A stretch of 47,554 nucleotides of DNA from Escherichia coli (GTDB lineage Bacteria > Pseudomonadota > Gammaproteobacteria > Enterobacterales > Enterobacteriaceae): assembly GCF_003334385.1 (NCBI RefSeq), contig NZ_QOWN01000034.1. The stretch is one strand, 5' to 3'. Below are positions 38,979 to 41,364 of the stretch, one piece after another (the first letter of the stretch is position 1; each line of letters begins with the position of its first letter). A model generated the notes under the pieces. That model did not search any database. It saw nothing but the letters and a program-made list of their open reading frames with translations, and was not told the origin of the DNA. A program made the translations under genes and the position numbers.

Positions 38979-40529
38979 ATGCCCACTTCTCATGAAAATG
39001 CACTGCAACAACGTTGCCAGCAAATTGTCACCAGCCCAGTGCTTAGCCCGGAGCAGAAGCGCCATTTTCTGGCACTGGAAGCAGAAAACAATCTGCCTTA
39101 CCCACAGCTTCCTGCCGAAGCCCGCCGCGCGCTGGATGAAGGTGTAATCTGCGATATGTTTGAAGGTCATGCGCCGTACAAACCGCGCTATGTCTTACCC
39201 GATTACGCCCGTTTTCTGGCGAACGGTTCCGAATGGCTGGAGCTGGAAGGCGCGAAAGATCTTGATGACGCACTCTCTCTGCTGACCATTCTTTACCACC
39301 ACGTACCGTCGGTCACATCGATGCCGGTCTACCTGGGGCAACTGGATGCGTTGTTGCAACCGTATGTTAGAATTCTAACACAAGACGAGATCGATATTCG
39401 AATAAAACGTTTCTGGCGTTACCTCGACAGAATCCTGCCAGACGCCTTTATGCACGCCAATATCGGCCCGTCTGATTCGCCCATTACCCGTGCAATCTTA
39501 CGTGCAGACGCAGAGTTGAAGCAGGTTTCACCGAACCTGACCTTTATCTACGATCCTGAAATCACCCCTGATGACCTACTGCTGGAAGTGGCGAAGAACA
39601 TCTGTGAATGTAGCAAACCGCACATCGCCAACGGTCCGGTGCATGATAAAATTTTCACAAAAGGGGGCTACGGGATTGTGAGCTGTTACAACTCACTGCC
39701 GCTGGCGGGTGGTGGCAGCACGCTGGTACGCCTTAACCTGAAAGCCATTGCCGAGCGCAGCGAATCGCTGGATGACTTCTTTACGCGCACTCTACCGCAC
39801 TACTGCCAGCAGCAGATCGCCATCATCGATGCGCGGTGTGAATTCCTCTATCAACAATCACACTTCTTTGAGAATAGCTTCCTGGTGAAAGAAGGGCTGA
39901 TTAACCCTGAACGTTTTGTGCCAATGTTTGGCATGTATGGGCTGGCGGAAGCGGTTAACTTGCTGTGTGAGAAAGAAGGGATTGCCGCGCGCTACGGTAA
40001 AGAAGCCGCCGCAAATGAAGTGGGTTATCGCATCAGCGCGCAACTGGCGGAGTTTGTCGCCAATACCCCCGTGAAATATGGCTGGCAAAAACGCGCCATG
40101 TTACACGCACAGTCGGGGATCAGTTCCGATATCGGCACCACGCCGGGCGCGCGTTTACCCTATGGCGATGAGCCAGATCCGATCACCCATCTGCAAACTG
40201 TCGCCCCGCATCATGCTTATTATTATTCCGGCATCAGCGACATTCTGACGCTCGACGAAACCATCAAACGTAATCCGCAGGCGCTGGTACAGCTTTGCCT
40301 CGGTGCCTTTAAAGCCGGAATGCGTGAATTTACCGCCAATGTCAGCGGTAACGATCTGGTTCGCGTTACCGGTTATATGGTGCGTTTGTCGGATTTAGAA
40401 AAATATCGCGCCGAAGGTTCACGCACCAACACCACCTGGCTGGGCGAAGAAGCCGCACGCAACACTCGTATTCTGGAACGCCAGCCGCGCGTGATAAGCC
40501 ATGAACAGCAGATGCGCTTTAGTCAGTAA
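38979..40529 (+). CDS. yjjI: Glycyl-radical-enzyme-like protein YjjI, 516 aa
   Basis: 516-aa ORF with good SD (AAGGAAAAG); C-terminal RVTGY glycyl-radical-type motif; followed by an overlapping radical-SAM activase gene. Confidence 0.88.
39365..39380. promoter_or_regulatory. DeoR operator O1 (deoP1)
   Basis: Perfect palindrome TGTTAGAATTCTAACA, 598 bp from O2, matching the known ~599-bp O1-O2 spacing; lies inside the yjjI reading frame. Confidence 0.75.
39644..39659. promoter_or_regulatory. DeoR distal operator OE
   Basis: TGATAAAATTTTCACA palindrome-like site 877 bp from O2, consistent with the reported ~878-bp distance of OE. Confidence 0.55.
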
Positions 40530-41364
40530 GATTATCCCCTTCTCCTGCGTTGACGGGCCAGGCAGTCGTCTGGCTCTGTTTTTGCAGGGCTGCAATCTGC
40601 GCTGCAAAAACTGTCACAATCCGTGGACGATGGGGCGCTGTAATCATTGCGGAGAGTGCGTGCCACAGTGTCCGCATCAGGCGTTGCAGATTGTTGACGG
40701 CAAAGTGGTGTGGAACGCTGCGGTCTGCGAGCAGTGTGATACCTGCCTGAAGAGGTGTCCGCAACATGCCACGCCGATGGCGCAATCCATGAGCGTGGAC
40801 GAAGTGCTTAGCCATGTCCGCAAAGCGGTGCTGTTTATTGAAGGGATAACGGTAAGCGGCGGCGAAGCCACGACCCAACTGCCGTTTGTAGTGGCGCTGT
40901 TTACTGCTATCAAAAACGATCCGCAACTGCGCCATCTCACCTGTCTGGTGGACAGTAACGGCATGTTGAGCGAAACCGGCTGGGAAAAATTACTCCCGGT
41001 GTGTGACGGCGCAATGCTCGATCTCAAAGCATGGGGTAGCGAATGTCATCAACAATTAACCGGACGCGATAATCAGCAGATTAAGCGCAGCATCTGTTTG
41101 CTGGCAGAGCGCGGCAAGCTGGCGGAACTGCGTTTGCTGGTAATCCCTGGCCAGGTGGATTATTTGCAACACATCGAAGAACTGGCGGCGTTTATCAAGG
41201 GACTTGGCGATGTTCCGGTACGCCTGAACGCGTTTCATGCCCACGGCGTGTATGGCGAGGCGCAAAGCTGGGCGAGCGCCACGCCGGAAGACGTTGAGCC
41301 GTTGGCTGATGCATTAAAGGTGCGCGGGGTGGGCCGGTTGATATTTCCGGCGCTGTATTTGTGA
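40501..41364 (+). CDS. yjjW: Glycyl-radical enzyme activating enzyme (radical SAM plus extra Cys clusters) YjjW, 287 aa
   Basis: N-terminal CxxxCxxC-type radical-SAM region ([26 protein letters not shown]) plus additional Cys clusters ([24 protein letters not shown]); 29-nt overlap with yjjI. Confidence 0.88.

Follow-up and report, generated by a model that had tools for sequence, protein, structure and literature searches.

Which reaction is carried out by the glycyl radical enzyme encoded beside the deo operon of Escherichia coli? Two overlapping open reading frames lie in the window (the whole stretch of DNA analysed, 47,554 nucleotides) at exactly the coordinates where a preliminary description had placed an orphan glycyl radical enzyme, its activase and, next to them, the genes of nucleoside catabolism.

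37942 to 38721, minus strand: deoC, coding for deoxyribose-phosphate aldolase and leading the divergent deoCAB(D) operon; its ATG is at 38721; from the open reading frame, its translation and the RefSeq annotation of the identical locus
38979 to 40529, plus strand: yjjI, coding for a YjjI-family glycyl radical enzyme of 516 aa
40501 to 41364, plus strand: yjjW, coding for a YjjW-family radical SAM enzyme of 287 aa that activates glycyl radical enzymes

The two reading frames share 29 nt (40501-40529), the ATG of yjjW lying inside the 3' end of yjjI. RefSeq annotates them as yjjI and yjjW, the models TIGR04040 and TIGR04041 match far above their curated cut-offs (787 bits against 498.3 and 398 bits against 250.2), and 5423 of 5426 complete E. 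coli genomes carry the locus; the pair is therefore already known. It is nonetheless an orphan, as described: neither NCBIfam (June 2026), where both models have the status 'hypoth_equivalog', nor the searchable literature assigns a function to either gene. Literature searches for yjjI, yjjW, PF11230, DUF3029, TIGR04040, HI0521, or glycyl radical enzymes together with nucleosides or deoxyribose found no functional study. Since reactions were recently assigned to PflD and YbiW (PMC12441222), YjjI appears to be the last E. coli glycyl radical enzyme without one; a 2025 preprint that lists the E. coli members does not include it. The family has few members, yet it is widespread among gut, oral and sediment anaerobes. 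An Rfam scan found no RNA elements inside yjjI or yjjW, only REP/naRNA4 repeats downstream.

A glycyl radical enzyme is oxygen-sensitive and is expected to combine a glycyl-radical loop, a cysteine on a finger loop, a barrel fold and a dedicated activase. PF11230 matches YjjI over residues 22-504 (E 6e-220; model positions 1-485 of 485), and three features stand out within this region.

39681 to 39692, plus strand: Cys-loop motif S235-C236-Y237-N238, with C236 the putative thiyl-radical cysteine
39891 to 39893, plus strand: E305, an invariant glutamate in the alignment and candidate general base
40362 to 40376, plus strand: glycyl-radical motif R462-V-T-G465-Y466, with the G465 codon at 40371-40373

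The RVTGY motif lies about 50 residues before the C-terminus and aligns, in a profile match, with the RVSGY around G734 of pyruvate formate-lyase (PFL). The same match pairs C236 with PFL C419 and S235 with PFL C418. R462 and G465 are invariant, and C236 is the sole conserved cysteine of YjjI, invariant in both alignments made (A1 and A2). All 169 collected full-length homologues retain R[VI][TS]G[YF] and SC[YF]N. D123, H159, R70/Y71, K213, R251, H376 and R392 are likewise polar and invariant or nearly so. The AF2 model (pLDDT 92) is a compact, ten-stranded alpha/beta barrel of the glycyl radical enzyme type, with C236 at the tip of a hairpin between strands 231-234 and 238-241.

The downstream product was described as a radical SAM activase with additional ferredoxin-like cysteine clusters, and these are indeed found in YjjW.

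40591 to 40614, plus strand: radical SAM cluster motif C31-X3-C35-X2-C38
40639 to 40758, plus strand: ferredoxin-like insert with two CX2CX2CX3C motifs (C47-C57 and C76-C86), matched by Pfam Fer4_9/Fer4_7 at residues 46-90

YjjW has a Radical_SAM domain, is homologous to PFL-activating enzyme structures (E 3e-19) and carries a GGE motif at residue 120. CX3CX2C and GGE are retained in 156 of 156 activase homologues; the ferredoxin-like insert is present in 122 and absent from 34. The next-best NCBIfam matches are the activases of HypD, CutC and sulfopropanediol dehydratase. yjjW adjoins yjjI in 78 of 80 genome loci and in nearly all metagenome loci. Alignment left both the glycyl-radical motif and the activase CX3CX2C motif intact in every collected homologue, and this conservation is, on the sequences compared, far beyond chance. 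Judged by sequence and predicted model, YjjI is a glycyl radical enzyme, with the glycine loop, finger-loop cysteine, barrel and dedicated activase of that class.

Two elements precede yjjI.

38905 to 38945, plus strand: putative FNR-dependent yjjI promoter, with an FNR-like site CTCATCAGGATCAA (38905-38918), a -10 element TACAAT (38940-38945) and a presumed transcription start; from conservation and the FNR literature
38967 to 38972, plus strand: Shine-Dalgarno sequence AAGGAA of yjjI

The GGATCAA half-site and the -10 element are conserved between enterobacterial genera. The strict FNR consensus is not conserved at this promoter, where only the right half-site is, and no -35 element is found; a sigma-70 promoter and terminator scan returned one promoter-like site against 2.1 expected. 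FNR binding by ChIP and FNR-dependent anaerobic activation of yjjI have been reported (PMC3688515), the gene is listed among those activated by FNR (PMC2634741), and a homologue in Yersinia intermedia is induced 4.3-fold anaerobically. Expression data place E. coli yjjI with nar, nap, frd and dms (nitrate and anaerobic respiration), not with deo. The sole published guess at a role, 'nitrogen metabolism' from biclustering, was set aside because it rests on this FNR co-expression.

These observations bear on whether yjjI-yjjW does anything at all in E. coli. That the pair is a relic without activity, or carries a radical without catalysis, would suit the lack of phenotype or activity reports in the searchable literature, but is very improbable given FNR regulation, near-universal presence in the species, 85-90% identity between enterobacterial genera and catalytic motifs intact in all homologues. 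YjjI is moreover a full-length barrel, in contrast to a small spare part of the GrcA type.

What the enzyme acts on may be reflected in its neighbours, and a survey of co-occurring genes shows nucleoside genes recurring beside the pair in several bacterial groups. Divergent deoCAB lies beside yjjI in Enterobacteriaceae and Hafnia; in Gilliamella the order nupG-add-cpdB-cdd-deoA-(ushA)-yjjI-yjjW runs on a single strand; and NupC adjoins the pair in Kluyvera, Trabulsiella, Pseudocitrobacter, Providencia heimbachae and Actinobacillus. Metagenomic loci include rih-ADPRGH-pfkB-deoD-sulfatase-yjjI-yjjW-MFS-bmp-ABC and, in spore-former or Firmicute-like operons, deoD-bmp-yjjI-yjjW-ABC-cdd-deoC-deoB/add. 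Many loci read bmp-yjjI-yjjW-ATPase-permeases, the pair standing between the binding-protein and ATPase genes of PnrA-type transporters, and these Bmp proteins are closely related to TmpC/PnrA and BmpD, which are nucleoside receptors (PMC7093131). The survey covered 37 lineage groups, 28 of which were informative; with neighbours annotated by a crude ORF caller from one representative per cluster, nucleoside-type genes were found in 13 to 16 of the 37. Roughly half of the informative lineages have NupC, Rih, ribokinase or Udk genes beside the pair. Nucleoside-type ORFs make up 12% of those within 2 kb of the pair and about 3% of those at 4-8 kb. Adjacency to deo recurs as a functional association elsewhere among bacteria, and the neighbourhoods suggest a role in anaerobic nucleoside breakdown. 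About half of the informative lineages have no nucleoside genes near the pair, among them Vibrio, Photobacterium, Shewanella, Proteus, most Providencia, Erysipelotrichaceae, Fonticella and the P0125 group. LysR regulators adjoin yjjI-yjjW in Vibrio and Shewanella.

The nucleoside genes could instead be hitch-hikers or reflect common transport of something else, with YjjI acting on an unrelated small molecule (a diol, amine, sulfonate or organic acid) of anaerobic respiration or fermentation. We consider this unlikely but worth keeping in mind: half of the lineages lack such neighbours, expression follows the respiratory genes, yjjI follows an ExaC acetaldehyde dehydrogenase and an AcuI-type reductase in Shewanella and adjoins an Fe-ADH in Erysipelotrichaceae, and BMP-family binding proteins can have non-nucleoside ligands. 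However, the nucleoside association is repeated in at least six gene arrangements and in distant subfamilies (35-45% identity), the pair is inserted within PnrA-type transporter operons, and the enrichment declines with distance from the pair. The most likely substrate class is a nucleoside taken up by the cell, or else its pentose or pentose phosphate after release, and the gene context cuts the search to a short list of nucleosides and pentose derivatives.

The kind of chemistry can be narrowed by comparison with characterized relatives. YjjI was said not to resemble PFL over most of its length, and this is borne out: Pfam gave no PFL-like or Gly_radical match (NRDD faintly, E 0.61), the NrdD and PFL models of NCBIfam were unmatched, and a search of PDB sequences with the single YjjI sequence found nothing significant (best E 0.89), PFL and NrdD being reached by the family profile only. 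At 516 aa YjjI is shorter than PFL (760 aa), and where PFL has the cysteine pair C418-C419, YjjI has S235-C236. Because Ser235 takes the place of the acyl-carrying Cys418 and there is no second cysteine, PFL-type C-C lyase chemistry via a thioester is excluded.

The closest structural relatives are the class III ribonucleotide reductases (RNRs). A profile alignment with E. coli NrdD by hhalign gave a probability of 89.5% (E 2e-6), although at 13-18% identity its reliability is only moderate, with the Cys loop about 6 residues off, which precludes finer active-site mapping. NrdD and YjjI share the C-terminal glycyl-radical loop, the finger-loop cysteine, an adjoining radical SAM activase gene, FNR-type anaerobic expression and a genomic tie to nucleoside or nucleotide metabolism. 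They differ in that YjjI is about 200 residues shorter, lacks the ATP-cone/specificity site and the C-terminal Zn ribbon (it has no CX2C pairs), and has no counterpart of the reducing-face cysteine (C175 in E. coli, C79 in T4), which the same alignment puts in a gap between PRY and LPDY. YjjW is a long activase with a ferredoxin insert, whereas NrdG is short.

A canonical RNR reductase was rejected, as YjjI lacks the reducing cysteine and Zn ribbon and coexists with NrdD. A pared-down anaerobic relative might still be a true reductase that converts a ribonucleoside or ribose phosphate to its 2-deoxy form with an external reductant such as formate, yielding deoxyribose units for salvage or making ribose cleavable by DeoC. 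The structural kinship and the alignment with NrdD fit this proposal, as do operons in which yjjI occurs with deoC and deoB, and the conserved R70/Y71 pair at the place of the NrdD reducing cysteine could serve as a formate-binding site or as a hydrogen-atom relay. We nevertheless regard it as improbable, since all known reductions of the RNR type require a reducing-face thiol, and YjjI has neither a second conserved cysteine or a Met pair nor the Zn ribbon, allosteric ATP-cone or NrdD model match. NrdD-NrdG, furthermore, is present alongside yjjI-yjjW in one cluster (L172/L173) as well as in E. coli.

Characterized 1,2-eliminases (glycerol and propanediol dehydratases, CutC, HypD, IslA) offer a functional parallel. 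Like YjjI they have a single catalytic cysteine with acid/base residues, and their activases, like YjjW, have two auxiliary clusters. A single conserved cysteine together with invariant E305, H159, D123 and several Arg/Lys residues favors an eliminase over a reductase or PFL-type enzyme, the fold and active site used in this argument being predicted. Against an eliminase, the Cys loop of YjjI lacks the GCxE glutamate of the characterized enzymes and has Asn at +2. Those enzymes carry GC[VI]E, with Glu at Cys+2, whereas YjjI has SCYN and its invariant E305 elsewhere, and YjjI is one third smaller. Judging from the motif, SCYN does not conform to the eliminase signature, and YjjI may function in an eliminase-like manner with E305 supplied from another position. 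Two E. coli enzymes provide a precedent: PflD and YbiW, also formerly orphan glycyl radical enzymes, cleave 1,5-anhydrohexitol 6-phosphates (PMC12441222), and their reactions were worked out from sugar-phosphate gene context. They perform redox-neutral radical C-O cleavage or elimination with a cyclic sugar derivative as substrate, chemistry of the sort suggested here for YjjI. In contrast to YjjI they belong to the PFL-like 'eliminase' clade, are about 765-810 aa long and occur with PTS rather than nucleoside genes.

Taken with the motifs, predicted fold, activase pairing, FNR control and recurrent nucleoside gene context, these comparisons favor, at a probability of roughly 0.55, a reading of YjjI as an FNR-induced radical eliminase whose substrate would be a nucleoside brought into the cell, or its pentose. 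To our knowledge, nucleoside catabolism as it is known needs no radical step, which counts against a nucleoside substrate. In the proposed mechanism YjjW, with one SAM cluster and two auxiliary [4Fe-4S] clusters, would cleave SAM and abstract hydrogen from Gly465 of YjjI. At every turnover the stored glycyl radical would pass to Cys236 at the barrel center, and the substrate would then lose a hydrogen atom to the Cys236 thiyl radical. The chemistry would most likely be a 1,2-elimination of the RNR or diol-dehydratase type, hydrogen being abstracted from a carbinol carbon in the ribosyl unit and the vicinal 2'-OH (or OR) then lost with acid/base aid from invariant E305, H159 and D123; Cys236 would give the hydrogen back in the last step. 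The deoxy-keto product could enter the Deo pathway (DeoA/DeoD, DeoB, DeoC) and end as acetaldehyde and glyceraldehyde-3-phosphate. The specific elimination and its product are speculative, and no conserved partner able to process a keto-deoxy product was found, which counts against this reading.

A more specific version, which we think rather doubtful, makes YjjI a catabolic RNR relative: a redox-neutral radical 2'-eliminase whose substrates would be ribonucleosides, 2'-O-modified nucleosides or ribose phosphates. If so, YjjI and a ketoreductase would turn ribosyl into deoxyribosyl units, cleavable by the Deo pathway to the same two products, and RNA-derived pentoses would have a previously undescribed anaerobic fermentation route in enteric bacteria, Pasteurellaceae, clostridia and treponeme-like bacteria. 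More generally, a radical step in nucleoside catabolism would add an anaerobic branch to the textbook Deo pathway and put the RNR fold to work beyond deoxynucleotide synthesis.

The pair had also been said to share regulatory DNA with deo, and the connection goes further than claimed, extending into the yjjI coding sequence.

38766 to 38781, no strand assigned: DeoR operator O2 at deoP2, TGTTAGAATACTAACA, in the yjjI-deoC intergenic region; operator pattern with 0 mismatches
39365 to 39380, no strand assigned: DeoR operator O1 at deoP1, TGTTAGAATTCTAACA, a perfect palindrome inside yjjI codons 129-134 (YVRILT)
39644 to 39659, no strand assigned: DeoR operator OE, inside yjjI codons 222-227, 279 bp from O1

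O2 and O1 are 599 bp apart, matching the published spacing of the deoP1 and deoP2 operators (PMC3334521). Transcription from deoP1 runs antisense to the yjjI 5' end and promoter, so that regulation could be antagonistic instead of common. Across 16 genera, third-codon-position identity is 0.99 at O1 and 0.97 at OE against a yjjI gene mean of 0.55, the rare codons AGA and CTA are used at O1, and O1 is missing from yjjI where deo is not adjacent. By these alignments the synonymous sites of yjjI are frozen at both operators, a clear case of a neighbor's regulatory DNA limiting synonymous sites.

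The preliminary description of this DNA had claimed a self-contained anaerobic pair, a glycyl-radical enzyme (GRE) and its activase with no reaction assigned, placed beside deo and sharing its regulatory DNA. Both reading frames are present in the ORF listing exactly where they had been placed, each encoding the motifs expected of it, and the interpretation as an orphan GRE and activase next to deo is supported overall:

38979-40529, plus strand: yjjI, 516 aa, YjjI-family GRE
40501-41364, plus strand: yjjW, 287 aa, its radical-SAM activase

The ATG of yjjW lies 29 nt ahead of the yjjI TAA stop. 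On the minus strand, divergent from yjjI, the listing has deoC (ATG at 38721) and, beyond it, deoA and deoB. The yjjI-yjjW segment was found in 5423 of 5426 complete E. coli genomes (coverage >=80%), and E. coli strain B379 is 100% identical to it. RefSeq names the products 'YjjI family glycine radical enzyme' and 'YjjW family glycine radical enzyme activase', in agreement with NCBIfam matches to TIGR04040 (787 bits, cut-off 498) and TIGR04041 (398 bits, cut-off 250), respectively; both models are of type 'hypoth_equivalog' and carry no assigned function in NCBIfam (June 2026). A full-text literature search on yjjI returned mentions only, with no characterisation found. YjjI is absent from the E. 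coli GREs listed in a 2025 glycyl-radical-enzyme preprint, and cleavage of 1,5-anhydrohexitol-6-phosphate has been assigned to two other E. coli GREs, PflD and YbiW (PMC12441222). The pair was therefore known and annotated before, is correctly rediscovered here, and is still an orphan.

The YjjI family is small, with 542 cluster representatives among 1.84 billion (E<=1e-3). RVTGY occupies residues 462-466, and the motifs R[VI][TS]G[YF] and SC[YF]N are kept in 169/169 full-length homologues collected; conservation of this kind makes a relic very unlikely. In alignments reaching down to 33% identity, G83, G120, D123, H159, L174, T196, P214, C236, E305, G418, R462 and G465 are invariant, and near-invariant positions include E62, R70, Y71, P74, D75, K213, N218, S235, Y237, N238, R251, H376, Q378, D384 and R392. 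Pfam PF11230 spans residues 22-504, and no Pfam match to a PFL-like or Gly_radical domain was found in YjjI. The earlier statement that YjjI does not resemble pyruvate formate-lyase (PFL) thus holds for sequence, but it does not extend to the predicted structure. When an AlphaFold2 model built from the alignment (pLDDT 92, pTM 0.91) was compared with the PDB by Foldseek, class III ribonucleotide reductases (RNRs) ranked at the top (TM 0.65-0.77), so that YjjI is predicted to be a minimal GRE barrel with a fold closest to RNR. In the model, C236 and G465 each sit on the tip of a beta-hairpin.

The YjjI family profile reaches PFL with E 5e-4 to 1e-3 and sets 'ygivSCyn' opposite PFL 'YAIACCVS', which equates C236 with PFL C419 and S235 with PFL C418. 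Alignment of YjjI 16-361 with the E. coli class III RNR NrdD by hhalign (probability 89.5%, E 2e-6) places the reducing-face C175 of NrdD opposite a gap between the YjjI motifs PRY and LPDY, and neither a CX2C Zn ribbon nor an ATP-cone was found in YjjI. These comparisons indicate that, in contrast to PFL, YjjI lacks an acyl-carrying Cys and that, in contrast to RNR, it lacks the reductant machinery. What the alignments identify in YjjI is a putative radical-relay dyad, Gly465 and Cys236, with conserved acid/base and cationic residues. It is less likely that YjjI works as a true, formate-dependent reductase, since it has no reducing thiol and NrdD coexists with it.

YjjW contains C31-X3-C35-X2-C38, GGE and two CX2CX2CX3C motifs (C47-C57 and C76-C86), and Pfam recognises Radical_SAM and a 4Fe-4S dicluster domain (residues 46-90). 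The closest solved structure is PFL-AE (E 3e-19), and the NCBIfam runners-up after TIGR04041 are the hydroxyproline dehydratase, sulfopropanediol dehydratase, indoleacetate decarboxylase and CutC activases. CX3CX2C and GGE are kept in 156/156 YjjW homologues; both ferredoxin-like motifs are present in 122 of these and neither in the other 34. The insert-free activases (250-262 aa) include those of Pasteurellaceae, Erysipelotrichaceae and one further lineage group, P0125 (loci L081-L083, L095-L097 and others). Their YjjI partners retain the same active-site motifs.

FNR binding and FNR-dependent anaerobic activation of yjjI have already been published, and in Yersinia intermedia yjjI is up 4.3-fold anaerobically. 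An FNR-like element lies ahead of the gene:

38905-38918: FNR-like site CTCATCAGGATCAA, 21 nt upstream of a TACAAT -10 element

This position would suit an FNR promoter of class II with its centre near -41.5. Across genera, the ATCAA half-site is kept together with the -10 element; the left half-site is not.

Gene neighbourhoods were compared at 80 genome loci, all from Gammaproteobacteria or MAGs. In 78 of the 80, yjjW follows yjjI. Divergent deoCAB is limited to Enterobacteriaceae and Hafnia. In Gilliamella, genes for a nucleoside permease, adenosine deaminase, CpdB, cytidine deaminase, a DeoA-like phosphorylase and often UshA lie directly upstream on the same strand, and a NupC transporter gene is found immediately 3' of yjjW in Kluyvera, Trabulsiella and Pseudocitrobacter and immediately 5' of yjjI in Providencia heimbachae. 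Vibrio, Photobacterium and Shewanella have a LysR regulator in place of nucleoside genes. In Shewanella (L050, L052, L053, L056, L060, L074), an ExaC-type acetaldehyde dehydrogenase (953 bits, cut-off 900) is encoded directly upstream of yjjI on the same strand; acetaldehyde is a product of DeoC, too. Genes for an AcuI-type acrylyl-CoA reductase and for two regulators of the LysR type are also close by at the Shewanella loci.

A second YjjI subfamily, ~35% identical to E. coli YjjI, occurs in Pasteurellaceae, Erysipelotrichaceae and Clostridia, with the order yjjI-yjjW-nupC in Actinobacillus. Exact look-up and a metagenome scan added contigs with 98 loci, forming 37 groups at 70% identity. Here, recurrent orders were rihC-like, ADP-ribosylglycohydrolase, pfkB, deoD, sulfatase-like, yjjI, yjjW, MFS, bmp, ABC; bmp-ABC, rih, M20 deacylase, LacI-type regulator, yjjI, yjjW, AlkD-like, rih; and nrdD-nrdG-nfo...nth-bmp-ABC-yjjI-yjjW. 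A spore-forming Firmicute has udk/deoD, bmp, yjjI, yjjW, an ABC ATPase and two permeases, then cdd, deoC and deoB/add (DeoC 284 bits, cut-off 117; DeoB 564, cut-off 256; ribokinase 339, cut-off 300). The Bmp proteins are close homologues of TmpC/PnrA (E 1e-121), pneumococcal PnrA and BmpD/BmpA, which are structurally characterised nucleoside receptors (PMC7093131). Flanks were informative in 28 of the 37 groups, and 13 to 16 groups have nucleoside genes within ~6 kb. When each group is counted by a single representative, the share of nucleoside-type ORFs among all ORFs declines from 12% within 2 kb through 9% at 2-4 kb to ~3% at 4-8 kb, the genome-wide background being well under 1% by rough estimate rather than measurement. 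Because it recurs across lineages and decays with distance, the association with nucleoside genes is no accident of enterobacterial synteny, and this recurrence is the main new evidence of the analysis. The association is not universal, being absent in about half of lineages. It is possible that YjjI acts on an unrelated substrate, in view of the lineages where no nucleoside genes are close by and of the co-expression of yjjI with respiratory genes.

Loci L172 and L173 (114-12212) carry one same-strand cluster of nrdD, nrdG, nfo (endonuclease IV), a MraY/WecA-like transferase gene, nth (endonuclease III), a Bmp-type ABC transporter, yjjI-yjjW and an amidohydrolase gene, so that two RNR-fold radical enzymes adjoin each other amid DNA-repair genes. 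In one metagenomic lineage (L139-L148), yjjW is followed directly by a gene for a 135-aa protein without family match and then by one for an AlkD/AlkC-like HEAT-repeat 'DNA alkylation repair' protein (PF08713, E 5e-65), flanked by nucleoside hydrolases and an M20 deacylase. Such neighbours could be a sign that nucleosides in modified or alkylated form are catabolised there.

YjjI combines a Gly/Cys dyad and an activase of its own with a predicted RNR-like fold, is under FNR control in anaerobiosis, and is encoded time and again within operons for nucleoside uptake and catabolism; from this we infer that it acts on an imported nucleoside, or on the pentose or pentose phosphate derived from one. 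A single Cys accompanied by conserved Glu, His and Asp residues would make redox-neutral radical 1,2-elimination at the diol of the ribosyl unit the most economical chemistry. Such an elimination makes up the opening half of RNR catalysis, and GRE diol dehydratases and PflD/YbiW carry out reactions of this type. In YjjI it would yield a deoxy-keto compound that, once reduced or cleaved, might feed into the Deo pathway; this specific reaction is speculative. The conserved Arg/Lys cluster would suit a phosphate in the substrate, and the yjjI-yjjW-nupC three-gene clusters and the insertion between bmp and ATPase genes favour the nucleoside itself, so that both a nucleoside and a phosphorylated pentose are candidates. 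The question of yjjI function is thereby given a concrete, testable direction.

A side result is regulatory DNA embedded in the coding sequence of yjjI. A search with the 16-bp DeoR operator pattern gave three occurrences, and a published motif lies nearby:

38766-38781: DeoR operator O2, pattern match
39302-39317: CRP ChIP-seq motif CGTACCGTCGGTCACA, also within yjjI
39365-39380: DeoR operator O1, perfect palindrome, within yjjI codons 129-134
39644-39659: DeoR operator OE, weaker match with 3 mismatches, within yjjI codons 222-227

O1 and OE are 279 bp apart, a spacing in line with the classic deo literature. O2 and O1 are separated by 599 bp, the distance between the DeoR-repressed promoters deoP1 and deoP2, which are subject to DNA-looping repression (PMC3334521). 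For yjjI as a whole, identity at third codon positions averages 0.55 across 16 enterobacterial genera, and it rises to 0.99 at O1 (top 0.6% of 5-codon windows) and 0.97 at OE (top 1%), and O1 is spelled by the rare codons AGA and CTA. Synonymous sites are thus frozen at both operators. These operators are absent from Proteus, Providencia, Gilliamella, Vibrio and Shewanella, all without adjacent deo. Since deoP1/O1 lies inside yjjI, deoP1 transcripts are antisense to the 5' third of yjjI (~first 380 nt) and to the yjjI promoter, which the DeoR loop encloses; this layout may either couple or oppose expression of the two units.

Pasteurellaceae YjjI proteins (P0285-P0380, including the H. influenzae HI0521 type) are 55-58% identical to the Firmicute/Erysipelotrichaceae subfamily and only ~35% identical to the enterobacterial one, which suggests horizontal movement between gut/oral Firmicutes and Pasteurellaceae. 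One NCBI protein (P0004, 574 aa, on a 2.9-kb contig) joins PF11230 to a DeoC/LacD aldolase domain (PF01791). As yjjI and deoC are divergently oriented, the apparent fusion is probably an assembly or gene-calling artefact.

At the 3' end of yjjI, third-position identity climbs to 0.95 in codons 511-516 (overlap 40501-40529). This would be consistent with dual coding with yjjW over 29 nt and with translational coupling, the latter because no clear Shine-Dalgarno sequence precedes the yjjW ATG. One base past the yjjW stop begins an array of about eight tandem 101-nt BIME/REP units (41365-42180) that occupies the entire yjjW-yjjV gap and therefore yields many partial BLAST places per genome; seven of the copies score above the Rfam gathering score for naRNA4 (RF02564).
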